From: Candidatus Hodarchaeota archaeon
GTDB taxonomy: Archaea; Asgardarchaeota; Heimdallarchaeia; Hodarchaeales; Hodarchaeaceae
Assembly (NCBI GenBank): GCA_016840035.1
Contig: JAEOTC010000077.1
Location: 1 to 64,000 of the forward strand
DNA: 64,000 nucleotides
Direction: 5' to 3'
Shown here: positions 3,180 through 20,530 of the stretch, one piece after another
Layout: each line of letters opens with the position of its first letter
Position numbering within the stretch: the first letter of the stretch is position 1
Made by a program: the position numbers and the translations under genes
The notes under the pieces: model-generated
Databases searched by the model: none
What the model was told of the DNA's origin: nothing
What the model saw: the letters and a program-made list of their open reading frames with translations, nothing else

Positions 3180-3836
3180 ATGGTTTCTGAGAAGAATAAG
3201 TATTCGATTTGGGTTGCAAGACTTAGTTTCTCTTTTTTGGGGTGGTTTACAATAATTATGAGTCATTACTTACAAATAGCCGACTCTGGTTCGATTTCCA
3301 TTTCTTCAGGTGTAAAAGTACTTAGTTCCTACAGATATTTCACAATGCAGACAAATTTATTTGTTTTAATTTGGTGGAGTCTGGCATTAATCTATTTTAA
3401 CAATTCTACAGTTATGACCAGGCTACATGGGCCAGTAAAAGGTGCAATTACCATATATATTTCTGTAACATTCATAGTATTCGCAACGGTGCTTAGTCCG
3501 ATCTATCATCCTACAGGATTCGATGCTTTTTCAAATATTGTACTTCACTATCTGGTCCCAGTATTCTTTATTCTCGATTGGTTTGTAACTGAAAGGGTAG
3601 ATTATCAACTAAAATCCCTTCCAGTCTGGTTACTGTACCCAATTCTGTACTTAGGATTTTCTCAAGTACATGGAGTTCTAACAACGAGTTATCTATATCC
3701 ATTTCTAAATAGTAAGGATTTAGGACTTGTAAGGTTTTTCGTGAGTATATCAATCCTGCTAGTACTCTTTATAGTATTATGTGTGATCTGTTTGGGGATA
3801 GCTAAGATCGTAAAAATTGAAGATAAGACATTCTGA
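3180..3836 (+). CDS. Pr6Pr / FAR-17a-AIG1-like membrane protein
   Basis: YFTMQTN, LHYLVP..F.LDW and YLYPFL motifs; 6 TM helices; ATG 3180 preferred (track start 3111). Confidence 0.8.
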   Translation: MVSEKNKYSIWVARLSFSFLGWFTIIMSHYLQIADSGSISISSGVKVLSSYRYFTMQTNLFVLIWWSLALIYFNNSTVMTRLHGPVKGAITIYISVTFIVFATVLSPIYHPTGFDAFSNIVLHYLVPVFFILDWFVTERVDYQLKSLPVWLLYPILYLGFSQVHGVLTTSYLYPFLNSKDLGLVRFFVSISILLVLFIVLCVICLGIAKIVKIEDKTF

Positions 3837-3890
3837 AATTAAGTAAGGATTAAGACAGGGAATAAAAAGAAAAAAGATGAATGGAGAAAA

Positions 3891-5162
3891 TTAAGACATT
3901 TTCACCATTGTATTAATTGTACGGGAGCCAATTAAGAACTGTACGTTTCTGGTTCCACCAACTACTTCAGAAATTTCTGAAAGACCCTGATGATGGGGCA
4001 TTTTGGTTTGATCTGTAACGCCCGTACCGCCCATAGCATGCATTAACTCATAACATAACTCATGGTTCAAAAATGAGCAGTATTCTTTCATATGGGAAGC
4101 TGTAGCAACTAATGGATTCATTGTAGGGGGAATGTCTGCAAGTTCATCCTTTTTCGCGTCATAGGTTTCCGCTAGCTTTAGGAGTGCCATTGTTGCAGTA
4201 GTTAATCGTGCGTGATATTTGGCCATAACTGCCATTCCAACAGCTTGGTGTCTTAGAATTTTCTCACCAAATTGTTTTCGGACAGTAGTGTAGATCGATG
4301 CTAAGGTGAATGCACCCCACATGTTACCTACACACTCAGCAGCAATTCCAATTCGTTCTGGTACTAGCCCTTCAAAGAGGATTTCGTACCCAGCACCATT
4401 ATCTCCTGTGATGTAATCAGTTGGGATGTGTGAATCTGTAAAAATTGTTTTTCCAATATGAAGTTTGTTAACTGATGGAATTCCAATTCGTTCTGCTTTA
4501 AAGCCAGAAGACCAATCCTTATGGGAAACTCCTTGAACCATGGTTCCACGAGGATCTTCTGGATTGTACACCGCATATACAACACATAAATCTGCTTTTG
4601 GACTATTTGTGGTGTAGCACTTCTCACCGTTTAGTACAATACCATCATCAACTTTTTCTGCTTTTACCTTCATATTGACTGCGTCAGAGCCTTGCAGAGG
4701 TTCAGTGATTCCAATACATCCGATCTTTGTACCGTCTAGTAATCCCTTTAGGTCATTTACTAGAGATTCTTTGCCTTCATTATGATGGGCAATTGGATTA
4801 ACAGCAAGAACAGAGGCACCCAAAGCCATACTCAATTGAGGATTAAAAATATCCAAGGTCCATTGCCTAAGAATTTCTGGTTTCAACCCGATTTCAAGAT
4901 CATCCCGGTGAGGATATTCATTCGACCTATTGATAAGCCCATGACTACCAGCCCAAGGAAATAAATCATAAACATCCATCTTATTATGCCCTGGAACTCC
5001 TCCAAGTGCTTCATCTTTTTCTAAACAGATACCCTGAATCTTCTCAACGAATGCTTTGTCCTCATCCGATAAAAGCATCATCATATTGTTGTTAAATATG
5101 CCATATTGCTTGTTCAAGTTCATTTCTGACAAGACGGCATCTTCTAGTAATTGTGTTTTCAT
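3891..5162 (-). CDS. Acyl-CoA dehydrogenase family protein
   Basis: GITEPLQGSDA, LNGEKCYTTN, ERIG, RKQFG, HAMGGTG, GGT..Q. Confidence 0.9.
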   Translation of the reverse strand: MKTQLLEDAVLSEMNLNKQYGIFNNNMMMLLSDEDKAFVEKIQGICLEKDEALGGVPGHNKMDVYDLFPWAGSHGLINRSNEYPHRDDLEIGLKPEILRQWTLDIFNPQLSMALGASVLAVNPIAHHNEGKESLVNDLKGLLDGTKIGCIGITEPLQGSDAVNMKVKAEKVDDGIVLNGEKCYTTNSPKADLCVVYAVYNPEDPRGTMVQGVSHKDWSSGFKAERIGIPSVNKLHIGKTIFTDSHIPTDYITGDNGAGYEILFEGLVPERIGIAAECVGNMWGAFTLASIYTTVRKQFGEKILRHQAVGMAVMAKYHARLTTATMALLKLAETYDAKKDELADIPPTMNPLVATASHMKEYCSFLNHELCYELMHAMGGTGVTDQTKMPHHQGLSEISEVVGGTRNVQFLIGSRTINTMVKMS

Positions 5163-5484
5163 AACTCTTCACTTTCTACTCAAATGTATCTTATAGCAAT
5201 CGAAGCATTTTCAGCTATTGCTATCTGATAATTAAGATTCTTAGAGTCAAAAACCAGTATAAAAGAATTAAGTCCGATATTTTAATTACAAATCATCACT
5301 GAAATTAACGATTGTAACTTTATCTGAGTTTTTCTCTCTTAACTGTTCTCTTCAAAGTTAAATGAATCTTTCCTTCTGAATCATTTAACGTAAATCTTTG
5401 TTCTTCACAGGCAAAGGATAATTAAAATCTTGAAGAATTCTTTCAAACATACTCCTATTCAAGTATAAAAGGATATTAAGAAAA

Positions 5485-7257
5485 ATGACAACAACTTGGG
5501 ATTTAACCTTTTTATATAAGGGATATGACGATCCACAAATAGATTTGGATCTAGAAAAAGCAGATCAAATGGCCGAGGATATTGCTAAGTATCGAGGAAA
5601 GCTTTCAAGCTTATCTTCATCTGAATTTGCTTCCTTTCTTAAGCAGCATGAAGAAATAGGGAATTTCCTAGTTCAATGTGGATCATATGGATCACTACTG
5701 TTTTCACAGGAGACTACAAACGATAATTTTAAAGCTGTTTTTGCAAAAGTCCAACAGAAAAATGTTGCTATTGGAAACAAGCTGATCTGGATAAATCTGG
5801 AAATTAATAAGATGGAACCTGAGGTTTTTTCAAAGTTTCTCAATGATCCTCAACTCAAAAATTATCATCATTATCTTGAAGTTCTTCGTTTACGAGAACC
5901 CTACCAATTAACAGAACCAGTAGAACAGGTACTAAATCAAAAAGCACTCATAGGTTCTAGTGCATGGGTAAAATTCTATGAAGAATTTACTGCTGATTTT
6001 AAATTTGAAGTAGAGATTGATGGAGAAAAGAAAACTCTTTCCCAAGGAGAAATGCGTCCGTTGTTCCGAGACCCTAACTCTACTACCCGTGAAAACGTTT
6101 TCAAGGCTTATTACCAGAAACATGTTGACAATTCTATCGCAATCTCTCATTGTTTCAATAATATCTGGAAAGATCATGGGCAGAATGTGGATCTTCGAAA
6201 ATATCCATCCACAATGACTATTGCGCACATTCGTAACCAAACCGATGAAAAAATCGTCGAAAAGATGATGGATGTTGTCAAAAAGAACTATACGCTTGTA
6301 CAAGAATACTATAAAGCAAAAGCAAAGCTAATGGGACAAGGTACGGCGATTAAAGGCTCAGACCTTTACGCTCCAATTACTAAGGTCACAAAGTATTCTT
6401 GGAAAGAAGCAGAAGAGGCAGTTATGTCAGCATTCAATGAATTCGACCCCGAAATAGGTACGATGGGCCAGAGACTCTTTGATGAGAACTTGATTGATTC
6501 TGAGATCAGGAAAGGTAAAAGAACTGGGGCATTCTGTGCTGGAATAACACCCGCACTTAAACCCGTAATCCACATGTCGTTCGATGGAACTTCCGATGGA
6601 GTAGCCACACTAGCTCATGAAATGGGACACGCCCTCCATGACATGTTTGCCGCTCGTAAGCAAACCCTGTTCAATTATCACCCTCCATTAGTAGTTGCTG
6701 AGACCGCTTCCGTATTTAGCGAACAGATTCTAATCTCCAAACTTCTTAAAACAATGACTGATGAAGAGGGAAAACTTACTCTACTCGTAAACCAACTTGA
6801 AGATGCTATTGGAACCATCTCCCGGCAAACAATGTACATCTATTTTGAAAAGGAATGTCATCTGAAGGGTGCAACAAAAACTCTTTCTTTCCAAGAAATG
6901 AGCGATATCTGGGATAAATACGTTAAAGAAGCTTATGGTGATTCTGTTAACTTTTTACCGGAGCAGAGTGCAAATTGGGCATCTATCCCGCACTTTCTAT
7001 TTATTCGATACTATTGTTATGCTTATTCTTTCGGTATGCTGTTCGTACTTGGCCTATATCAGAAATATCTTGAAGAAGGAAATCCATTCATTCCAAAATT
7101 AAAGAGAATTCTGGAAGCAGGTGGGTCGCAATTTCCGGTCGATCTTGCAGCTTCGGTAGGTCTGGATATTAGAACAGAAGAATTCTGGCAAGCTGGATTT
7201 GATTATTTACACGGATTGTTAGCAGAATTTAAGGAAATTGTAGAAAAACGTTCCTAA
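5485..7257 (+). CDS. pepF: M3B oligoendopeptidase F
   Basis: WDL N-terminus, GKRTGAFC, TLAHEMGHALH (HExxH), AETASVFSE, W.SIPHF, YCYAYSFG. Confidence 0.92.
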   Translation: MTTTWDLTFLYKGYDDPQIDLDLEKADQMAEDIAKYRGKLSSLSSSEFASFLKQHEEIGNFLVQCGSYGSLLFSQETTNDNFKAVFAKVQQKNVAIGNKLIWINLEINKMEPEVFSKFLNDPQLKNYHHYLEVLRLREPYQLTEPVEQVLNQKALIGSSAWVKFYEEFTADFKFEVEIDGEKKTLSQGEMRPLFRDPNSTTRENVFKAYYQKHVDNSIAISHCFNNIWKDHGQNVDLRKYPSTMTIAHIRNQTDEKIVEKMMDVVKKNYTLVQEYYKAKAKLMGQGTAIKGSDLYAPITKVTKYSWKEAEEAVMSAFNEFDPEIGTMGQRLFDENLIDSEIRKGKRTGAFCAGITPALKPVIHMSFDGTSDGVATLAHEMGHALHDMFAARKQTLFNYHPPLVVAETASVFSEQILISKLLKTMTDEEGKLTLLVNQLEDAIGTISRQTMYIYFEKECHLKGATKTLSFQEMSDIWDKYVKEAYGDSVNFLPEQSANWASIPHFLFIRYYCYAYSFGMLFVLGLYQKYLEEGNPFIPKLKRILEAGGSQFPVDLAASVGLDIRTEEFWQAGFDYLHGLLAEFKEIVEKRS

Positions 7258-7282
7258 ATCCCCCTCTTTTTTCTTTATCTCC
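7258..7282 (+). terminator. Pyrimidine-rich terminator
   Basis: atccccctcttttttctttatct immediately after the pepF stop. Confidence 0.5.
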
Positions 7283-7336
7283 GGAAAAAGATCATAGAAG
7301 GGTTTAATCCTCATTTTTTCTGAAACACACTCTCCA

Positions 7337-10300
7337 ATGAATTTATTGCCCTCTATCGTTAACTTTTTGAGGTCAGAAAATTCCAAATCACCTATAGCTA
7401 TATCAGGAATCTCGACAGCCATGCAGAAAACGGATTATGAGAAGGTTTCTTTTGGACGAGTTCCTTTCGTTTGGAAGAAAAAAATCAGTAATCTTGCTAA
7501 AGAAGATCCTGAACAAGCCATAAAAGTATTTTTCAGTAATTTTCAGATGAACAATGAACCTAAACAGATGATTTATGGTTTCGAACAAACACTACCTCAA
7601 AGTATGGTCTATATATTAAATCATTTGGAAGAACTGAATTCAGAGCGATTTGAGTACTTAATAAGCATGTTTAACGATTCTAATTTTCTTGATTCTTTAC
7701 TTTCAGTTGGAAAAACTGAACAAACAAAGTTCCTTGACAGAATGGTTCAAAATTGGGATATTGTGGATAAAAGTATCATCCAAAGGATTTTGAGTCAATT
7801 AAATCCCGAATTGAGTGAAAAAAGTTACAAAGATCTGGTGACAGCAGAGAATAATTCCCTCATTGAGCTACTTTCTTTCTGGGTTAAATGTGATGTCCGA
7901 GTATTATATCTCGTCTTAACTAATTATATCATACAACCTACTGATCTAATCCTTCCTCTGTTACGAAAGACTCCAAAAGAGAGTTTAATCACTGCATGTA
8001 ACGCGCAAAATCTCCCAGGAAAACTATCTCCCAAGAAAATCGAACCATTTTTAAAAATGTTTGACGAAACACAGGAAGAAATCAATTATCTTTTCCCAAA
8101 ATTCAGTTCTTCATCTAGTAAGGCTCAACAGTCTTTTCTCGACTGGCTAATTGCAAAAAAAATTCCCGTAAGAAAGCTACTAGGCACAATCCCTCCTTCT
8201 GATCAAGTAAAAACTAAGGCATTGTTCATATCCTATTTTTCCCTAATATCTAAGGATGAGAAAGCAGAGGAACTTAATATATTAACTAAAATTGTTGATT
8301 TTTCACTATATCAGACTGCAAGTTTTGTACTAGAGTTTCTCGACAAAAAAAAAGATACCGTTGCTTTAGATTATCTCGATTCTCTCCTTATGATCTTTCA
8401 AAAGGATTTAGAGAAGCATTTGGAATTCTTCGCTTCAGCTTTTCAAAAATATTCAATCAATGAGAAGCAACGTCTAATAACCACTTATTTCAAGACAGAA
8501 GAAGAAATTATAGGAAAAATCCTTCTTCCTTCAATAAACACCCTCAAAACCTCACAATGGAAAAAACTTATTGAACAAATTATTCAGCAAAGGTATTACA
8601 TTGACAAAAATCGAGTATTCCTTTTACTGAATAGTTTTAATGCTAAAATAATTAATGCAATGAGTAAATATATTATTAAAACTCAATATTTACCTCAACT
8701 TAGTTTCCTCTACTCAAACTATGAATTTTTCCGTCCTTTACTTACCACATCGGAACCTATTGATACAACAGTATACTCACATTTAGCAGAGTCCATGAAA
8801 ACCCATTTTACAACTCATTTTGACGAAATTATCGTTTATGGGAGTAAAATTACATTCCCAAAGAGTATCATTGCAAGTGGATTTACAGAGAAAGAAGTCT
8901 CGAAATTAGTATCAGGAGTGGGATTCGAGAAAACCCTAATTATAGCTTGGGAAGAAGTATTCTTACTCCGACCTGACGAAAGTTTACCGTTATTTTTGAA
9001 ACAATTCGCAAGTAAAACCAAGAAATCGAAGGATCCAATTGTATCGATTACAAAAAAACTGATAGACATTGAATCGGGGACATTCTGGAAGTATATTTCC
9101 TCTTTGTCAAATAGAAGTTTATCAAAATATCGTGATCTACTGATACATGCATTAGATAAGAGTATACCATTATTAAGTGAAATCCTCATTTCTTTACCAA
9201 GAACACATACCACTTATCTAGGGAAGAGTATAATCCCAGAATTTGAAGCAAAGAGTCAAGAAATGCTCTATGCGATTCTTTCGGTCAATGAGTCTTCATT
9301 TTTGAATCATAAGAGTGTTGACGGCTTCATTCTATCCATATTGAAACAGAATCCAAGAAACCTTATATTTCCAGCCTTAATGCGACTTTCAGCCCTCGAA
9401 TCCGATTCATCATTACTGGAGTTTGTGAAAAAACTATTTTCCAGTATCATTTCAAAATATCCAAGAGTTACAATTGAAATCATTGATGATCATGCACTCT
9501 CATCATTTTCTCCCTCAGTTGCAGTCTATTTCGATTCATTAACTGAGAAAAAACTTAGGATTTTGCTCAAATATATAATTCTACAACTTAAAACTAAATG
9601 TTTAAAGCCTACTCTCATCGATCAATGTCTTTCACAATTTAGACATTCTAATAATAATTATCGATTACTCCAAGAGATTACAACGGCTGATCCCTCAAAA
9701 GAATTTTCAACTGAAGGCCGTTCTTTATTATCATCGGTAACCAAACAGATTGTAGGAACATCTATTGAAAATGATGTCAAAATATTGGCCCTAGTCAAGA
9801 ATTCCCATACATCTATTCGTGAAGAGTTACTAGGAGCGTATTTTGAGAAAATACCACAAAATACATTAGATTATGTTCTTTCTGATCAAACTATCGACAT
9901 TTCAGATGAATTGACTGTTCGAGCATTGACGATTCGATTTGCCAAACGACCCCCACAAGCCCCAGAAGAATTTTATCTTTCTCTATATCAGCAATCAACA
10001 CGAAACGAAATTAAACGTGCTGTGTTACCCCTAGTAGGAGAATATTGTTCATGGACTAATTTACCATTTCTTATGGAGTTACCGGAACGGAATGAATTCA
10101 AACAAGAGTATTCTGCTGCAATCAAGAAATTCATTCAACGATTTGAGATTGAATCTGAAGATACCCTGTTTCGTATCTGGAGTTCAGGTTTGAAAGATAT
10201 TTATGATAAAAGAGGTCAAGCTTCACAGGTTTCTACATCACCTTCAAAACAAAGATCTAGTTATCAATCAAATTGTCCAAAATGCAATAATCCGATTTTA

Positions 10301-12725: not shown

Positions 12726-13535
12726 TTAGTCTAAGGGAGCATCTGGAAAAGCTACAATGCGGCACATCGAAGATTCTAATTCTATACCGCGAAGTGGGAA
12801 ACATCCTATCCATGTGCGCTTGTTGGTCAATGCAGGATCATCAGGAATCCATAAATTTTCAGCATGAATAACACCTTTCGGAAAGAGTTCAAGATGCATA
12901 ATTTGGTAGAACTTAGAAGGTGGGAACATCTCATCCCAGCTACTCACACCAAACTTTTTCGTCAGTTTTTCTTCTGCTTCAACAAATGACTTCGGATGCC
13001 AATCACGTATAATAGTATTCATCGGATGGTCAGCTGATCCACAATCGACCCCTATCCACTTGAATTTCATATCTATTGCCCATTGAGGGAAATCAGCGTC
13101 AGGACCTGGGTGTTTTACAAAATATCTCACTTCATCACTCTCAGGTTGATCCCACGCATATCTCTGATAGCCAGTTTTTATCAGGAGGATGTCCCCTTTC
13201 TTTATATCTGCTTTTTCCATTAATAGATCTGGGGAATACAGATCATAATCAGTCATTTCATTGGATATATCAACAACTACACCTGAACCACAAAATTCTT
13301 CTAACTCCATTTCACCTATGGTCCTTCCTGCAGCAAAGAAATGTATTTCACCATCAATATGCGTACCAACATGATTACTAGTCTTTATAATTTGTCCATT
13401 GGCTCCTTGTCCCATGTGGGCTCCTGCAATTCGTTTAAAATACTGTAATTGCAACGGCATGTAACTTGGCCAAGGAGGCGTATGTATAGAGAGACGTTGT
13501 GTCAAATCAATCATTCTAAAGGTCATTTTTATCAC
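12726..13535 (-). CDS. Cyclase-family (kynurenine formamidase-like) metal-dependent hydrolase
   Basis: IDLT, HVGTHIDG (HxGTHxD), GDILLIKTG, GVDCGSAD, HAENL, CRIVA. Confidence 0.9.
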   Translation of the reverse strand: MIKMTFRMIDLTQRLSIHTPPWPSYMPLQLQYFKRIAGAHMGQGANGQIIKTSNHVGTHIDGEIHFFAAGRTIGEMELEEFCGSGVVVDISNEMTDYDLYSPDLLMEKADIKKGDILLIKTGYQRYAWDQPESDEVRYFVKHPGPDADFPQWAIDMKFKWIGVDCGSADHPMNTIIRDWHPKSFVEAEEKLTKKFGVSSWDEMFPPSKFYQIMHLELFPKGVIHAENLWIPDDPALTNKRTWIGCFPLRGIELESSMCRIVAFPDAPLD

Positions 13536-13687
13536 TTTGTAGGTAAAAAATTACGTATATACAATTTTTGATATTAGGTTCATTTATTTTATTCTTCGTT
13601 TGTTAGGTTTACTTTTTCCCCTATCTATCAATGTTGTTCAAGGACCATAGTTGTATGTATTCAGGGGAATAAATAAAAATTATTTCA

Positions 13688-13936
13688 CTAATGGAAGGTA
13701 ATCACATGATATAGGCGTCGGAGAAAAAGTATATTTTGGAAACCGAAAAAAATAGTCACATAAATCAGTGCTAGAACCAGTATCTCCCAAATTAACTTTT
13801 TGTAAGGATTTTCGTGAAAATAAAATCTGATATTACTGATGAAAAGTAGAATGAGGAAGAGTTGAAAACAATGTTTTGAAGACTTCCTAGGTTTTGGGTT
13901 ATTCGTCATTCTTTTCTGTTCCCCCAAATTATTCAA
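13688..13936 (-). CDS. Possible small two-TM membrane protein (uncertain)
   Basis: Only ORF in a 585-bp gap; two hydrophobic segments; no recognisable motif. Confidence 0.3.
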   Translation of the reverse strand: MNNLGEQKRMTNNPKPRKSSKHCFQLFLILLFISNIRFYFHENPYKKLIWEILVLALIYVTIFFGFQNILFLRRLYHVITFH

Positions 13937-14119
13937 TATTCTCTTCTTTGTAATTGCTCTTGTACAAATTGAATATTGATTCTCCCTTCAGTAAACTACT
14001 TTCTAGAGTGTTAATGATTTTAGATTCCTCTGCGAGGCCAAAGAATAAAAATATCTTCTCCCCATAGTTAGGGTATTCACTAGGAAATCAAAACCTATTA
14101 TTACGAGGCGATTGAGAGT

Positions 14120-14515
14120 ATGTCACATTTTACGATTATAAAAACACAAATCAAAGATCGTGAGTGTTTAATCGAAGCGTTATTAAACCTAAATTATGTT
14201 GTAAAGGAGAACGTTCCAATCCTTGGATATGCAGGACGGAAAACACGTGGAGACGTTGTTGTCAAAACGGGAAAACAATATGATGTGGGATTTAACAGGT
14301 GTCCTGAAGAGATCTATCAGATGGTTGCGGATTGGTATGGTGCAAGAAGAGCAGTTGGTCGTTCGGAGTCTGAATTCTTAGGTGAAGTGCAAAGGGAATA
14401 CTCGACCATCAAAGTGATTCGTTCAGTCAAAGCTAAAGGTTATAGCATACAATCTAGGACTGAAGCAGAAACTGGAGAAATTCACTTAGTAGCAGTTAAA
14501 CGAGGTTGGCAATAA
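14120..14515 (+). CDS. DUF1257 / Ycf35-like protein
   Basis: MSHFTIIKTQIKD...L..AL, GY.G, YDVGF, MVADW...QREYS consensus. Confidence 0.88.
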   Translation: MSHFTIIKTQIKDRECLIEALLNLNYVVKENVPILGYAGRKTRGDVVVKTGKQYDVGFNRCPEEIYQMVADWYGARRAVGRSESEFLGEVQREYSTIKVIRSVKAKGYSIQSRTEAETGEIHLVAVKRGWQ

Positions 14516-14721
14516 TGAGTGTACAGCAAACAGAAATTGCGATAACAATTGATAAACAAGGGAATGTCTCCTATACGGTGAAGGGGCTGAAAGGAAAGGA
14601 TTGTGTCAAAACCACAGAATTTCTAGATCAGGCTTTAGGTGAGGTCACAAAACGGGAGCATACTCGTGAATATTATGAAAGAAAAGTGAAGATAACAGAT
14701 CGTGTCGAAACAACTCGATGA
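14515..14721 (+). CDS. DUF2997 small protein
   Basis: I.I.IDKQGNV...VKGLKGKDC...T..L..ALG.V......EYY; ATG overlaps the upstream stop (TAATG). Confidence 0.85.
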   Translation: MSVQQTEIAITIDKQGNVSYTVKGLKGKDCVKTTEFLDQALGEVTKREHTREYYERKVKITDRVETTR

Positions 14722-14736
14722 TTAAAATGGGTGTAA

Positions 14737-16275
14737 ATGATGACAGATTTAATAGAAAGTCAACCAGAAGAAGTTGCAACACTTATCAGGGCAAGGTACT
14801 CAATTATATACATTGTTTCATGGGAAGAAGCTCGGATCACGCTTACCTTAAACAATATAACCGCTGAAAGTGAAAAACGACTTATTATCTGGAGTACAAC
14901 GGAAGGGTTCAAAGACTTAAGTGGGAAAGCGGTTGATGCCGCAGCAACTGATCCATTTGCAGCATTAAATTACATTGTTGACTACAGTCGTCCAGCGGTA
15001 TTCCTACTAAAGGATTTCCATCCTTTTATGAAGGATCCCGTCATTATCAGAAGATTAAGGGATTTGAAAGAACCATTAGATAAACTGAGAAAATCGTGTG
15101 TCATTGTCTCTCCAGTCTTGTATATTCCAACTGAATTAGAAAAAACCATCACGGTAATTGATTGGGATTTACCCGATTTGGACATCTTAAACAATGTCCT
15201 CCAGAGCATCGTTGAACCTATGCGCGAAAATCCGAAAGTAGACGTGAATCTTACGGAAGAACAGCAGGAGCTCGTATTAAAGTCTGCATTAGGATTAACT
15301 TTAGTTGAGGCAGAGAATGTATTCGCTAAAAGTCTAGTTAAGGCCAAATCTTTCAATCCAGATATTATTATAAGAGAAAAGGAACAAATCATCAAAAAAT
15401 CAGGGATCTTAGAGTTTTATCAACGAGTTGAGAAACTTGACTCGATTGGAGGCTTGGATAATCTTAAGAATTGGTTAACTAAGAGAAGTAAAGGATTCAC
15501 AGAAAAATCTAAAGACTACGGCTTACCTGCCCCTAAAGGGGTAATGTTAATAGGTATAGCAGGATGTGGAAAGAGCCTTACAGCAAAAGCCATAGCTTCG
15601 CTTTGGAAGCTTCCTTTACTACGATTAGATGTAGGGAGATTGTTTGGAGGAATCGTTGGGGAGTCCGAGCGAAATATTCGAAAAGCTATCAAAATTGCAG
15701 AATCTGTAAGTCCAGCTATTTTATGGATTGATGAAATTGAAAAAGGATTCAGCGGCATCCGATCGAGTGGCCAAACAGATGCCGGAACAACAAGTCGAGT
15801 ATTTGGAACATTTATAACTTGGCTTCAGGAAAAAGAGGATCCAGTATTTGTTATTGCTACTGCTAACGATGTAAGTCAATTACCTCCTGAATTACTAAGA
15901 AAAGGTAGATTTGATGAGATCTTCTTTGTAGATCTACCTTCAGATTCTGAAAGGACGGACATTTTCAGAATCCATTTTGAAAAAAGAGGACGTGATCCTA
16001 AAAAATTCGATATAAATGCATTAACAGGATTGACCACTGGTTTTTCCGGCGCAGAAATAGAGCAGGTAATAATAGAGGCGATGTTTGAGGCTTTCTTCGA
16101 TGATCGTGAGGTAGAAACCACAGATATAATGAATGCGATCGATGAAACCGTCACATTATCGAGACTTATGAAGGATGAAATTTCGGATCTTCGGACATGG
16201 GCGACTTCACGTGCGAGATATGCCTCAAAAACTGAACAGCAAACAGAAAGGAAAATTGATATTGAAATTGATTAA
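14737..16275 (+). CDS. Ycf46-like AAA+ ATPase
   Basis: LIRARY..IY..SWEE.R N-terminus, degenerate first AAA (VFLLKDFH), Walker A GIAGCGKS, Walker B LWIDEIEK, ATAN, PPELLRKGRFDEIFFVDLP. Confidence 0.92.
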   Translation: MMTDLIESQPEEVATLIRARYSIIYIVSWEEARITLTLNNITAESEKRLIIWSTTEGFKDLSGKAVDAAATDPFAALNYIVDYSRPAVFLLKDFHPFMKDPVIIRRLRDLKEPLDKLRKSCVIVSPVLYIPTELEKTITVIDWDLPDLDILNNVLQSIVEPMRENPKVDVNLTEEQQELVLKSALGLTLVEAENVFAKSLVKAKSFNPDIIIREKEQIIKKSGILEFYQRVEKLDSIGGLDNLKNWLTKRSKGFTEKSKDYGLPAPKGVMLIGIAGCGKSLTAKAIASLWKLPLLRLDVGRLFGGIVGESERNIRKAIKIAESVSPAILWIDEIEKGFSGIRSSGQTDAGTTSRVFGTFITWLQEKEDPVFVIATANDVSQLPPELLRKGRFDEIFFVDLPSDSERTDIFRIHFEKRGRDPKKFDINALTGLTTGFSGAEIEQVIIEAMFEAFFDDREVETTDIMNAIDETVTLSRLMKDEISDLRTWATSRARYASKTEQQTERKIDIEID

Positions 16276-16295
16276 AGAAATGGTGAATTTCACTC

Positions 16296-17528
16296 ATGAA
16301 ACGAAAAAGTATCCATTTTTGTCACTTAACTGATTCTCATCTTGGAAACCGTCAGTATGGCCTTCTAGAACGATTTGATGATTTTGCACGAGCACTCTCA
16401 TATTCAATCAATAGCTGTATCAACCTTAGACCTGATTTTGTGATTATGACTGGTGATTTGTTTGAGAACGCCAAGCCTCAAGCTCCAGAACTTCGCCAAG
16501 CAGTGAAGATCTTGGGAAAACTACAAGAAGCCGAAATCCCCTTGATTATTTCCCAAGGAAATCATGATGTTTCATATTCTCGGGCAAGACGTTATGGGGG
16601 GGATATTTTGGAATTCTTAGCTGATTTAGACATCGGAATTCAATATATTCAGGATGAGATAGCCTATATTGAACTGGATGACGAAAAGACGGTTCAAATT
16701 CTTGCAGTCAATTATTATGGAAAACGGACCGATAAAATCCTACAGCAATTAATTCGTCAAAATTCGTCAGAGCTTGAAGCTTTCAAAGGCCTTAAGCTGT
16801 TGATGATTCATGCATTTGTGGAGGGAATGCCTGGTGCAACAGATGTGAAATTACGCACAATAAAACGAGGTAATTTTGATTATATCGCAGTAGGACACTT
16901 GCATGAACGCTGGGAAAATAAAACCCATCATATCTATTGCCCTGGATCAACAGAACATACTAGTGTTTCAGAATGGAAGCAACCTGAACGAGGATTATAC
17001 GATGTTAGAAATGTTCGTATAGACGATCATTGGGTCTCAGAAGTCGAGTATGTGCCCATCTCTACCAGAGAGAAGATCGAATATACACACAAATTTCGTA
17101 GTACTAGTGTTACTGAGATCAGAGAGGAGGCAGAGGCGATTTTACTTAAAAATGATAAAACAGATGCCATCGTTCGGTTCGTATTCCAAGGAGATTACAA
17201 GGGAAAAGAGCATCCGTTTATAAATCTTGAATATTTTAAGCATATTCCCAAGAAAGCTCTCCATACAATAATCGTCCCAAAATTTCTTGAAGTAGAAAAA
17301 AAAGGTATTGCAAAGAAAATTCTTACAAAACGGGAAGCTTACGAAGGGCTGATAACCAGGAACTATGAATTACCTTCTAAACTCACAGATGATTATATTT
17401 CCTTGATTGAAGATTCTATCCGTATAATCGAGGGTAATGCAAAAATTTCTCATCAAGAAACCCTACTTGATAAGCGCTACTCACAGTTTGCAAAAAATTT
17501 AATAGTGAAATCTAGTGAGGAGGGGTAA
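16296..17528 (+). CDS. mre11: DNA double-strand break repair nuclease Mre11 (SbcD family)
   Basis: DSHLG..QY, TGDLF, GNHD, HA, YIAVGHLH, PGSTE; GGTGA SD; adjacent to rad50. Confidence 0.9.
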   Translation: MKRKSIHFCHLTDSHLGNRQYGLLERFDDFARALSYSINSCINLRPDFVIMTGDLFENAKPQAPELRQAVKILGKLQEAEIPLIISQGNHDVSYSRARRYGGDILEFLADLDIGIQYIQDEIAYIELDDEKTVQILAVNYYGKRTDKILQQLIRQNSSELEAFKGLKLLMIHAFVEGMPGATDVKLRTIKRGNFDYIAVGHLHERWENKTHHIYCPGSTEHTSVSEWKQPERGLYDVRNVRIDDHWVSEVEYVPISTREKIEYTHKFRSTSVTEIREEAEAILLKNDKTDAIVRFVFQGDYKGKEHPFINLEYFKHIPKKALHTIIVPKFLEVEKKGIAKKILTKREAYEGLITRNYELPSKLTDDYISLIEDSIRIIEGNAKISHQETLLDKRYSQFAKNLIVKSSEEG

Positions 17529-17530
17529 GA

Positions 17531-20380
17531 GTGGTTTTACGTTTAGAAAAGCTGGATTTATCGAATTTTAAAACATTTCAAAAAACCTCTTTTAGTTTCA
17601 CTCCAGGACATAACGTTGTCTTAGGAGAGAATGGAGCAGGAAAATCGTCGATTTTCGAGGCTATTACCTATGGCCTGTTTGGAAGTGTCCCTGGTAAAAC
17701 TATTTCAAGTTTAATCCGTCATGACACAAGGAGAATGGAAATCACACTAGAATTTAGTGTGGATGAGAAAGATTTCGTAGTAGAACGTTCAGCAACACAT
17801 AGTACATCTTCCGCTTTACTTACAGAAAAAAATGGTAAAAGAATAGCTGAGAAAGCTAAAGCAGTAAATGAAGAAATGGGCCAAATTTTAGGTTTAGGAC
17901 AACGTGTTTTTTCCAATGTGGTCTATATTCCACAGGGACAGATTGCAGCTATTGCCTCGGAAAGGCCATCAGAGAGAAGAGAGCTTTTTGACAAAATTCT
18001 AGGTTACTACCTATATAAAATAACATCCGACCGATTACGAGTCGTTGAAAGGTCTACAGATCAATCTATCACCGCGTTTCACGATCGAATTCGAGACTTT
18101 CAAGAGGATATTAAGAGAAAAAACGAAATCGAAACCGATCTTGAGAGCTTAGAATTAAAATTAAACACTTTACAGAAGGATATTATCGATCTCAAACCAA
18201 AACTAGAGAAAGCTGTTGAGAAATACGAGGAATTAAACAATGAGAGAGAAACTATTAATCAAATTGAGGAGAGATTAAAATCAAAGGAACAAGAGATAGA
18301 AAAACGTAAAAATGAATCTAAAGATTTGATTATATCATTAGAAGAATTAACCAAAAAATCTATACCTTCAGACATAAAAGAAGTAAAAGAACTGAAAACT
18401 GAAAATACAATGAAGTTATCACATCTAGAAGAGAGTCTAAAAAAACTTGATTTGAAAGTGGAGGAGGGGAAGAATGTAAGGAGTGTTTTATCAGAGCTAA
18501 CAAAAAGAAAAGCAAGCTTAGAATCTCAAATCGATACGATTAACACTAAAATAAGTAATTTGGCGCATGAAATTGGTGTGAAGTCGCAAAATTATCAGAA
18601 AGAATTAACAACAATTAAAACGAGAAGTGAACAGCTTAAAGAATCGAAAATCGTCATCAAAAGGAGAATCGATGAGGTAATCTTGAAAGAAAAGGAGTTG
18701 AGTGTGTTAGAAGAGAAAAAAAATACTATCCTTGAAGATAGTGAAGGAATAAGCGTAAAAAAGAAAGACCTCGAAGCTACACTTTCCAGTATTCTTCCAG
18801 ATTGGAGGACATCTCTTGAAGAAATCCTCAACGTTGATCTTTCAGTACTCAAGATAAAGCAAGAAAAACTTCTTCAGAATCAGAACTTAAAAAATACGAC
18901 AATACAGGGAAAGATTACAAGTTTACAAGATCAAGTGGAAAATGAATCTAAATTATTGAGCTTAATCAAAACAAAGAATATCGAAAATTGTCCATTGTGC
19001 GAACAATCACTCAATGACTCTCATAGAAAGAATATCAAGGCAACTAAGAGGACAAAGATAAAGGAGATCAGGCAAGAAATAAAGAAACTGACCAAAGAGA
19101 AGCAGTTAAATGATCTTGCCATCAAGAAGTCAATAGATAGCCTGGAAGATATTAATAAGCGAGAAAAGAACCAAATTTCGCTACAACTTCATGCTAAAGA
19201 ATTAAAAGATTTCCAATCAACCATCAAGGACTTGAAGAAAAATTTAGGGAGAGTGGAGAGCAGTATTGAAGATCTCAAAGATCCTTCAAAAATTTATAAC
19301 GAGCTTGAAATCGAGCTTGAGAAGATTGAATCAGATCAGAACATTTTAGGAGATCGAATCAATCGGATTGAAAATATACTGATATTAAGTGAACAACTAG
19401 GTAATTTTCGATCTGAAATGGATTCTATTATCAAGGAAGTATCAAATAATCAAAAGAATTTCAATTATTTGGAACTAGAAGAGAATATCAAAGTATTAAA
19501 ATATCAAAAACAAGACCAAAAGCACATCCTGAACATAATCCCACGTTTGGAGACATTGATTAGTACCCACGACTCGATTGAACAATTAATTGAAGAACAA
19601 ATTACTATAAAATTGGATCTTTCATCTAAATTAGACGAGTTTGATGAAAAAACATTTCGTAAATTTAAAAATCGTGTGGAGAAACTAAAGACCAAGAAGG
19701 TTCAAATTGAAACCAATATCTCTAGTCTAGTAAAAGACCAAATTCCTGACAAAAAAAAGTCTCTTCGGGAGATAAGGGAGAAAGAGAAAAAATTAAAATC
19801 GATTAAACACGATTTAAAAATCACTCAATCAAAACTTGATACTATTGAGATTGTAAGGAATTTTACAAAGGAAATAGTACCAATCTTACGTAGACAACAT
19901 GTAATGGCTATTTCAGAATATTCCACAGAAATTTTTTCGTACTTGATGAATAATGAAGAATACGAGGGAATCGAGATTACCGAGGATTATGAATTGTTAA
20001 TCCTGCAATCAGGCAAGAAATATGATTTAACTATTCTTTCAGGAGGGGAACAAGTTATTGCATGTCTTGCCATTCGCTTAGCAATTGCAAAATTATTAGC
20101 CAATCAAGACATAATGCTTCTTGACGAACCTACAGTTATGCTTGATTCGTATAGGCGAAAAGAGCTAGTCGAAGTTTTTGATAAAACTAAACCTGTTCGT
20201 CAGACAATTATCGTTACCCATGATACAGAATTTGAAAGAGTTGCTGATACTACTTTCACGATCGTAAAACTTGCAGGCAGATCCACTGTAATTTCAGAGG
20301 AAATTGATCATATTGTCTCTCAACAGAAGAAATATCAGATGTTAACTAAAGAACGCTTTAAACAATTAGAAATTAGCTAG
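17531..20380 (+). CDS. rad50: Rad50 SMC-like ATPase
   Basis: Walker A GENGAGKSS, Q-loop YIPQGQI, long coiled coil with central zinc hook CPLC, signature LSGGEQ, Walker B LLDEPT, IVTH. Confidence 0.92.
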   Translation: MVLRLEKLDLSNFKTFQKTSFSFTPGHNVVLGENGAGKSSIFEAITYGLFGSVPGKTISSLIRHDTRRMEITLEFSVDEKDFVVERSATHSTSSALLTEKNGKRIAEKAKAVNEEMGQILGLGQRVFSNVVYIPQGQIAAIASERPSERRELFDKILGYYLYKITSDRLRVVERSTDQSITAFHDRIRDFQEDIKRKNEIETDLESLELKLNTLQKDIIDLKPKLEKAVEKYEELNNERETINQIEERLKSKEQEIEKRKNESKDLIISLEELTKKSIPSDIKEVKELKTENTMKLSHLEESLKKLDLKVEEGKNVRSVLSELTKRKASLESQIDTINTKISNLAHEIGVKSQNYQKELTTIKTRSEQLKESKIVIKRRIDEVILKEKELSVLEEKKNTILEDSEGISVKKKDLEATLSSILPDWRTSLEEILNVDLSVLKIKQEKLLQNQNLKNTTIQGKITSLQDQVENESKLLSLIKTKNIENCPLCEQSLNDSHRKNIKATKRTKIKEIRQEIKKLTKEKQLNDLAIKKSIDSLEDINKREKNQISLQLHAKELKDFQSTIKDLKKNLGRVESSIEDLKDPSKIYNELEIELEKIESDQNILGDRINRIENILILSEQLGNFRSEMDSIIKEVSNNQKNFNYLELEENIKVLKYQKQDQKHILNIIPRLETLISTHDSIEQLIEEQITIKLDLSSKLDEFDEKTFRKFKNRVEKLKTKKVQIETNISSLVKDQIPDKKKSLREIREKEKKLKSIKHDLKITQSKLDTIEIVRNFTKEIVPILRRQHVMAISEYSTEIFSYLMNNEEYEGIEITEDYELLILQSGKKYDLTILSGGEQVIACLAIRLAIAKLLANQDIMLLDEPTVMLDSYRRKELVEVFDKTKPVRQTIIVTHDTEFERVADTTFTIVKLAGRSTVISEEIDHIVSQQKKYQMLTKERFKQLEIS

Positions 20381-20530
20381 TTAGGATATTGTATTCTCTT
20401 GGATGCAAAGTCGTTCATAAGGAAGAGTATCACATCCTTACCGTTTTTCCGTCATTTCTGAGTCAGAGAAATGAGAATTTATGATACCCTTCTTACTCAG
20501 GAACCCTAAGTAGAAGGATGCATACCTTCT

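Follow-up and report, generated by a model that had tools for sequence, protein, structure and literature searches.

A five-gene cluster of an Asgard archaeon (Candidatus Hodarchaeota) places the genes of the Mre11-Rad50 (MR) pair directly behind a triad encoding Ycf35/DUF1257, DUF2997 and a Ycf46-like AAA+ ATPase, three orphan families that occur widely in cyanobacteria and plastids as well as in phages and many bacteria. The cluster lies in a stretch of 64,000 nucleotides (the window) on contig C13 of a metagenome-assembled genome (MAG; G000, 4.3 Mb, 87% complete), where open reading frame (ORF) calling and Pfam searches revealed five consecutive plus-strand ORFs in the order DUF1257-DUF2997-AAA+-mre11-rad50 (14120-20380, Table 1). 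A stop/start overlap (TAATG, 14513-14517) joins the first gene to the second, the remaining gaps within the cluster, read from the sequence, measure 15, 20 and 2 bp, and GGTGA lies 9 nt 5' of the mre11 ATG. None of the intergenic gaps of the cluster contains a T run of five or longer. A preliminary description of this DNA had given the co-oriented genes, the overlap, the gaps, the Shine-Dalgarno motif and the lack of a T-tract between the AAA gene and mre11 exactly to the base. Because of the TAATG overlap, the DUF2997 gene most likely starts at ATG 14515 (alternative 14506), and homologues start with MS(V/A) at the equivalent position. The first run of at least five T 3' of the rad50 stop lies at 20444-20448; as oligo-T runs also occur within coding regions, they do not define transcript ends. 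Logan contigs from three DNA runs span the junctions of the AAA gene with mre11 and of mre11 with rad50.

Table 1. Features of the cluster and its non-coding borders (window coordinates).
Feature	Position	Strand	Basis
Non-coding 5' portion of the ~7 kb insert	13536-14119		Relative to congeners without the cluster
Ycf35/DUF1257 protein, 131 aa	14120-14515	+	PF06868, 1e-17
DUF2997 protein, 68 aa from ATG 14515	14515-14721	+	PF11211, 1.8e-15
Ycf46-like type II AAA+ ATPase, 512 aa	14737-16275	+	Pfam AAA, 5e-29, and AAA_lid_3
AAA+ D2 Walker A	15553-15576	+	Motif reading
AAA+ D2 pore loop GGIVGESE	15646-15669	+	Motif reading
AAA+ D2 Walker B	15718-15741	+	Motif reading
AAA+ D2 sensor 1	15856-15867	+	Motif reading
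AAA+ D2 Arg fingers	15895-15915	+	Motif reading
AAA+ C-terminal tail KIDIEID	16252-16272	+	Motif reading
Mre11 nuclease, 410 aa	16296-17528	+	Metallophos, 3e-11
Mre11 DSH motif	16323-16346	+	Motif reading
Mre11 GDLF motif	16449-16463	+	Motif reading
Mre11 GNHD motif	16554-16568	+	Motif reading
Mre11 GHLH motif	16890-16904	+	Motif reading
Rad50 ATPase, 949 aa	17531-20380	+	AAA_23/SMC_N, weak Rad50 Zn hook
Rad50 Walker A GENGAGKSS	17624-17650	+	Motif reading
Rad50 Q-loop YIPQGQ	17924-17941	+	Motif reading
Rad50 Zn hook CPLC, residues 487-490	18989-19000	+	Motif reading
Rad50 signature LSGGEQ	20036-20053	+	Motif reading
Rad50 Walker B/D-loop LLDEPT	20117-20134	+	Motif reading
Rad50 H-loop VTHD	20213-20224	+	Motif reading
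Rad50 25-aa clade-specific C-terminal extension ending ERFKQLEIS	20303-20377	+	Alignment
Downstream non-coding end of the insert	20381-20530		First oligo-T after rad50, short hairpin

Recurrence and history of the gene order

The five-gene order recurs in a Hodarchaeota MAG of the same genus (G013:C52; identities, in the order DUF1257/DUF2997/AAA/Mre11/Rad50, of 65/63/76/70/71%; the contig ends within rad50), in another family of the same class (G053:C13; 56/61/70/62/44%), in Ca. Borrarchaeum weybense (G307:C6; 40/52/60/42/32%) and on two short metagenome contigs (L035 and L040), with an AAA-to-mre11 gap of 15-90 bp in all recurrences. Database matches to AAA, Mre11 and Rad50 agree on ten contigs by size, which suggests about eight further linked triad-MR contigs. 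The recurrence is far beyond chance, and the flanking genes, which are housekeeping genes, have nothing in common between lineages. Uniqueness of the adjacency to this genome, which the preliminary description had named as grounds for abandoning its proposal, is thus contradicted by the recurrence across divergent Asgard lineages. Its "one operon" is real as a tightly packed five-gene unit shared by these lineages; co-transcription, physical contact between triad and MR, and a remodelling role are what we infer.

In a quick IQ-TREE search of 48 Mre11s, the triad-linked proteins formed one clade (Shimodaira-Hasegawa-like approximate likelihood ratio test (SH-aLRT) 97) with Borrarchaeum at its base. 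The same branching appeared in the AAA tree, which additionally contained a nested subclade of triads without MR (support 99), including a second triad of this genome on contig C184. The simplest history consistent with these trees would be a single fusion, followed by co-diversification and then by one loss or duplication that yielded the MR-free triads.

Within the genus, canonical Mre11/Rad50 is present in only 2/22 species, both copies being triad-linked, and DUF1257 occurs in 11/400 Asgard genomes. With 18 kb of the window as DNA query, the genes flanking the insert site (cyclase-family and 344-aa) were found to lie ~140-150 bp apart in the congeners G002 and G014. Since the flanking genes adjoin there, the five genes and ~0.7 kb of non-coding DNA make up one ~7 kb unit that is either present or absent. 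Homology to G002, G014 and G020 stops at 13535 and resumes at 20530; beyond 13535, a short box (13575-13596) is still conserved. The congener G013 has the insert site without the cluster, which lies on another of its contigs, and G020 carries another ~1.2 kb insert with one minus-strand gene at the site of the cluster (G020:C54:6088-7350, L043). With the cluster in this genome, a different insert in G020 and none in G002 or G014, the site varies within the genus. Neither terminal repeats, direct or inverted, nor an integrase or a tRNA were seen at the insert borders, and the base composition of the cluster carried no foreign signature. Since its origin, the cluster appears to have been passed on, and to have spread from genome to genome, as a whole. 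Its promoter presumably lies in the upstream non-coding part, where an 82-aa minus-strand ORF (13688-13936) without a Pfam family match is probably spurious.

The herA-nurA slot and other MR sets

In the Mre11 tree, the window protein groups with Asgard Mre11s that adjoin herA-rad50. The herA-linked comparison set comprised a Helarchaeota-like sister group and the Heimdall families f4 and f5. All Mre11s outside the triad clade with visible upstream DNA had herA directly upstream, preceded by nurA in L027 and L037. Judged from gene order, the triad occupies the slot held by herA(-nurA) in the sister Mre11 clades. A search with the operonic HerA scored 457 bits in G037 and only 56-129 bits in the triad-linked genomes G000, G013, G053 and G307. 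The ~500-aa HerAs beside nurA elsewhere in G013, G053 and G307 scored 77-88 bits and the one in this genome (C98) 34 bits; G037 holds a comparable weak second HerA match (75 bits). The sole nurA-herA of each of the four triad-linked genomes is a separate pair. Because the operonic HerA type was not found in them, we conclude that the triad displaced herA(-nurA) and that the latter was not simply relocated.

The preliminary description of an operon without herA or nurA is borne out for the locus, since neither domain was detected in 14120-20380 or in the whole window. Beyond the window, a search of the genome returned a separate nurA-herA pair on C98 and a second NurA on C18, but a second MR set only in a much more divergent form. 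The window pair is the only canonical Rad50/Mre11 of this genome, and the canonical MR is likewise the sole one in G053 and G307. The divergent set is an overlapping minus-strand operon on C272 (L032) that encodes a Mre11-like phosphoesterase of 410 aa (7889-9121), an ATPase of 792 aa resembling Rad50 and structural maintenance of chromosomes (SMC) proteins (5514-7892), and a MrfA/Hrq1-like DEAD helicase of 754 aa with an MZB zinc domain (3253-5517). The ~800-aa SMC/Rad50-like protein occurs in 13/21 congeners, so that it is the C272-type set which looks like the core equipment of the genus for end processing, in place of canonical MR.

In the sister clade, nurA-herA-mre11-rad50 operons of the canonical type carry an addition as well. 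In L028 (9948-14362) and L037 (14427-16208), an AAA_5 (MoxR-like) ATPase gene lies directly 3' of rad50, followed in L028 by a VWA/CobT_C protein, a further case of an AAA-type gene added to an MR operon.

Predicted properties of the five proteins

Mre11 carries all motifs of the calcineurin-like phosphoesterase fold (D-x-H, GD, GNH[DE], H and GH-x-H), and the 11 clade members compared share D13, H15, D54, N89, H90, H172, H201 and H203 without exception. Its NCBIfam scores were higher for archaeal Mre11 (90 bits, best model Mre11_Sulfo) than for SbcD (57 bits); the archaeal score is below the equivalog cut-off of 500, such models being lineage-specific. Rad50 scored 266 bits on archaeal Rad50 models (cut-off 700, not reached) vs 98 bits on SbcC, with all best models being Rad50. 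It has the split ATP-binding cassette head that characterizes Rad50, its halves set apart by a long coiled coil that bears a CxxC zinc hook, and a weak Pfam Rad50_zn_hook match (0.0087) spans CPLC. The MR pair is predicted from these motifs to be a catalytically competent DNA-end-processing complex. Logan contigs from two runs showed a 630-nt in-frame skip in the rad50 coiled coil (window 17646-18277); with only 21 nt on the shorter side, the skip probably reflects another organism or a repeat artefact and not a short-coil variant.

The AAA+ protein combines a degenerate D1-like tier (~residues 1-230, no P-loop) with a D2 tier whose motifs are intact. By sequence, its closest solved relatives are the D2 domains of Cdc48/p97/VAT. 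Residues 6-491 of its AlphaFold model (predicted local distance difference test (pLDDT) 79) superpose on VAT D1-D2 (Z 23.1, 456 residues aligned), and the model also superposes on D1-D2 of Pex1/6, Rix7, NVL and p97, which identifies the N-terminal 230 residues as a D1-like tier. The preliminary description of a Cdc48-like two-domain AAA thus agrees with the model over both tiers. The protein has the features of a type II classical AAA+ ATPase, namely two stacked tiers and, in at least one of them, classical Walker A/B motifs, second region of homology (SRH) and Arg fingers. The model opens directly with the D1-like tier, with no separate N-domain. As the protein has neither an N-terminal double-psi-barrel domain nor an aromatic pore loop 1, it would be Cdc48/VAT-like in its working and not a Cdc48/VAT orthologue. 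From the model, we predict a hexameric ATPase of two tiers, similar to VAT/p97, with activity confined to D2. The nearest non-Asgard relatives are bacterial (55-59% identity), which places the protein outside the archaeal Cdc48 lineage. Corndog-like mycobacteriophages encode a full-length homologue of the two-tier protein (32% identity, 96% coverage) at a distance of eight genes from their Ku-like DNA-end-binding protein (Mycobacterium phage Firecracker, L052, gp100 and gp91), and homologues likewise occur in Pseudomonas, Rhizobium and Rhodobacter phages.

Both small proteins score above their Pfam gathering cut-offs (DUF1257 64.7 bits vs 22.2, DUF2997 57 bits vs 24.1). The N-terminal M-S-H of Ycf35/DUF1257 is present, and in a 123-sequence alignment S2 was invariant and H3, G36, D71 and Y94 were kept in at least 90%. 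The AlphaFold model (pLDDT 95.7) is an alpha+beta domain with the motif [VI]RG[YWF]xG at a predicted beta-hairpin tip, where Gly is kept in 96% of sequences; in the window, the motif reads ILGYAG (14219-14236). It loosely resembles the glycyl-radical motif RVxG[YF]; that it might serve as a radical site for the NrdG-like activase described below would be a speculation from this resemblance only. Foldseek returned no PDB match at E <= 0.001. We rejected a fold assignment based on the best structural score (Z 6.3, to KA1-like and IntS9/11 C-terminal-domain-like alpha+beta domains), which is within the noise stated for the tool.

Triads without MR and a radical-SAM activase

Linkage to MR is not a general property of the triad. 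In four species with MR-free triads (L019, L020, L021 and L022), a gene ~230 bp 3' of the triad (4801-5364 in L021) encodes a conserved 187-aa protein (62-64% identity) that has a zinc ribbon at its N-terminus and is hydrophobic at its C-terminus. A small NrdG-like radical S-adenosylmethionine (radical-SAM) activase (Fer4_12) lies directly 3' of rad50 in G053 (L025:14090-14662) and directly 3' of the AAA gene in the MR-free triad of G018 (L018:4512-5102). No such activase was found in the cluster or elsewhere in the window; this genome carries an orphan NrdG-like activase on C59 (L051:5485-6096, minus strand), and NrdD was not found in it. Within the genus, five genomes hold both activase and triad, one the activase only, two the triad only and 14 neither (Fisher one-sided p 0.004; the relatives are not independent).

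C-termini that changed with the partner

An extension of ~25 residues ending in ...LT.ERF..LE[IL] was found in 10/10 triad-linked Rad50s and in 0/18 other archaeal Rad50s, which end 13-32 residues after the H-loop. Asgard AAA+ proteins of the triad end in ...[IL][DQ][IL]E[IL], a tail that their bacterial relatives lack. Mre11 differs too: the herA-linked Asgard proteins (L027, L036, L037, L039, P0016-P0024) have a Lys-rich tail with ...KK(L/I)DSF, whereas the triad-linked proteins are ~40 aa shorter and lack it. The KKLDSF tail may be a partner-docking peptide. We also considered copies of the tail in other neighbours of the triad and dropped the idea, as the zinc-ribbon protein and the radical-SAM proteins do not carry it.

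Functional interpretation

Functional coupling of triad and MR is well supported by comparative genomics. It is argued by the order and spacing kept down to 32-42% identity, the single origin followed by co-diversification, the exact substitution at the position of herA and the simultaneous alteration of the termini of Rad50 and Mre11. Classical-clade AAA proteins remodel proteins by threading polypeptides, not DNA; as the ATPase belongs to this clade, we favour a protein-remodelling partner of MR. We propose that a portable Ycf35/DUF1257-DUF2997-Ycf46-like AAA+ module took, once, the place of herA(-nurA) upstream of archaeal-type mre11-rad50. The AAA+ ring with its two small subunits would then act on Rad50-Mre11 at DNA ends, by loading, releasing or recycling it, or, alternatively, strip end-bound proteins and so let MR act. 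The handle might be the clade-specific Rad50 extension, whose end resembles the AAA+ tail. We regard coupling of triad and MR in general as the more probable reading, and the tail as handle as much less so.

In its most specific form, the proposal would make the Ycf35-DUF2997-Ycf46 module a tail-directed protein segregase whose client in the triad-linked Asgard clade is Rad50. It would recognize ...ERFxxLE[IL] of Rad50, a mimic of the AAA+ tail ...[IL]x[IL]E[IL], and spend ATP on removing MR from DNA ends or on resetting it, thereby replacing HerA-NurA coupling and forming a prokaryotic counterpart to the control that p97 exerts over MRN and Ku. We consider this version quite unlikely.

Several observations speak against a remodelling partnership or weaken its support. 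The classical clade of AAA+ proteins has a broad range of substrates, which leaves room for a client other than MR, and the pore loop reads G-I-V-G, with Ile where unfoldases usually carry an aromatic residue. The second triad of this genome (DUF1257-DUF2997-AAA on C184) adjoins no MR, and other genes lie beside the triads of the MR-free subclade to which it belongs (L018-L022) and beside three Asgard triads that are more distantly related (L029-L031). The likeness of the Rad50 and AAA tails was noted post hoc, and a C-terminal LE[ILV] occurs in 14/3438 ORFs of the genome (0.4%). A C-terminal extension of Rad50 as such is not confined to the triad clade either, as herA-linked Rad50s of one Heimdall family (L045, L046) are also extended, ending in ...LKLS or ...FELA, a hydrophobic-x-hydrophobic pattern. 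Branch support in the trees, which come from quick searches, is limited to SH-aLRT values, and among the Logan contigs of the three DNA runs none independently spans the outer insert junctions of the MAG.

Other readings explain parts of the evidence. The cluster could be an accessory anti-virus or anti-plasmid cassette in which an MR-like nuclease degrades invading DNA while the triad senses or gates, and which spreads horizontally. This would suit the patchy distribution (canonical MR in 2/22 species, DUF1257 in 11/400 Asgard genomes), the single indel unit at different sites in two congeners, the DUF1257 clusters and full-length AAA homologues in phages, and generic PADLOC matches to IetA (85 bits) and LmuB (118 bits). 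The PADLOC matches, however, cover only the head domain or the AAA, with no LmuA, LmuC or IetS partners and no match for Mre11, DUF1257 or DUF2997, and Rad50 and Mre11 score far better on archaeal repair families than on LmuB or other defence models. Context gives no support to the anti-virus role that the preliminary description had suggested: genes of defence systems or mobile elements are absent from the flanks of every copy, and the three long copies have housekeeping neighbours and no integrase. The insert lacks terminal repeats, no relative of Mre11 was found in viral contigs, and the pair is the sole canonical MR in G000, G053 and G307. We judge a defence cassette unlikely.

That adjacency is a historical accident kept by co-transfer, with triad and MR functionally independent, would fit the existence of triads without MR elsewhere, this genome included. 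It fits poorly with an order and spacing that survive to 32% (Rad50) and 42% (Mre11) identity across at least three families while all flanks changed, with the co-diversifying AAA and Mre11 trees, and with Rad50 and Mre11 termini that changed together with the partner swap; we hold it to be very unlikely. Less credible still is a true replacement of HerA-NurA, in which the AAA+ would be a DNA resection motor and a small protein would supply nuclease or DNA handling. The triad sits exactly in the herA(-nurA) slot, the operonic HerA type is lost, and the invariant polar residues S2, H3, D71 and Y94 of DUF1257 could form an active site. Yet the ATPase is a member of the classical AAA clade and most similar to Cdc48/p97 D2, the module occurs without any DNA-repair genes, all four genomes retain a separate nurA-herA pair, and the DUF1257 fold matches no nuclease, which makes this reading highly improbable. 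We therefore rank a remodelling partner of MR above a defence cassette, replacement by a DNA motor and accidental hitch-hiking.

Comparison with known systems

SbcCD shares with the window pair the superfamilies of a metallophosphoesterase nuclease and an SMC-like ATPase, but the window proteins score much higher on archaeal Mre11/Rad50 models, and the C272 pair is nearer the SbcCD grade. Eukaryotic p97 extracts Ku and limits MRE11 at breaks. The AAA+ of the cluster resembles Cdc48/p97/VAT in its two stacked AAA tiers, its D2 sequence, which is closest to theirs, and its intact Arg fingers and SRH. It differs in lacking the double-psi-barrel and the D1 P-loop and in a pore loop that is I-V-G and not aromatic. 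Because its nearest non-Asgard relatives are bacterial, the resemblance to p97 at breaks is an analogy only.

In cyanobacteria, DUF2997 and ycf35 adjoin (PMC4284462), the Ycf35 N-terminus is MSH (PMC13060386), and Ycf46 is a stress-induced AAA with a reported KaiC interaction in S. elongatus (PMC13683863). The archaeal module shares the three families and MSH with the cyanobacterial and plastid genes, which have no reported link to DNA-end processing, whereas the archaeal module is joined to an MR operon. Full-text literature searches found no publication describing the triad-MR arrangement. A conserved operon of single origin in which this orphan module, in the slot usually held by HerA, precedes the well-understood Mre11-Rad50 provides a first concrete, testable partner for it, and the triad-MR system an attractive minimal model. 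If true, a tail-directed segregase would be the first biochemical role for the plastid and cyanobacterial orphans ycf35 and ycf46.

The closest counterpart is the canonical archaeal herA-mre11-rad50-nurA end-resection operon of Sulfolobales and Thermococcales (PMC13748450). Both encode archaeal-type Mre11 and Rad50 with all motifs and the Zn hook, adjacent and translationally close, with the gene of a hexameric ATPase directly upstream of mre11, and the nearest Mre11 relatives lie in nurA-herA-mre11-rad50 operons. In the cluster, by contrast, HerA (an FtsK/HerA-type translocase) and NurA give way to a classical-clade AAA+ and two small proteins, Rad50 has gained its 25-aa extension, Mre11 has lost the KKLDSF tail, and nurA-herA persists in triad-linked genomes only as a separate, divergent pair. 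The four-gene resection operon that is taken as the archaeal standard has thus undergone rewiring in relatives of the eukaryotic ancestor.

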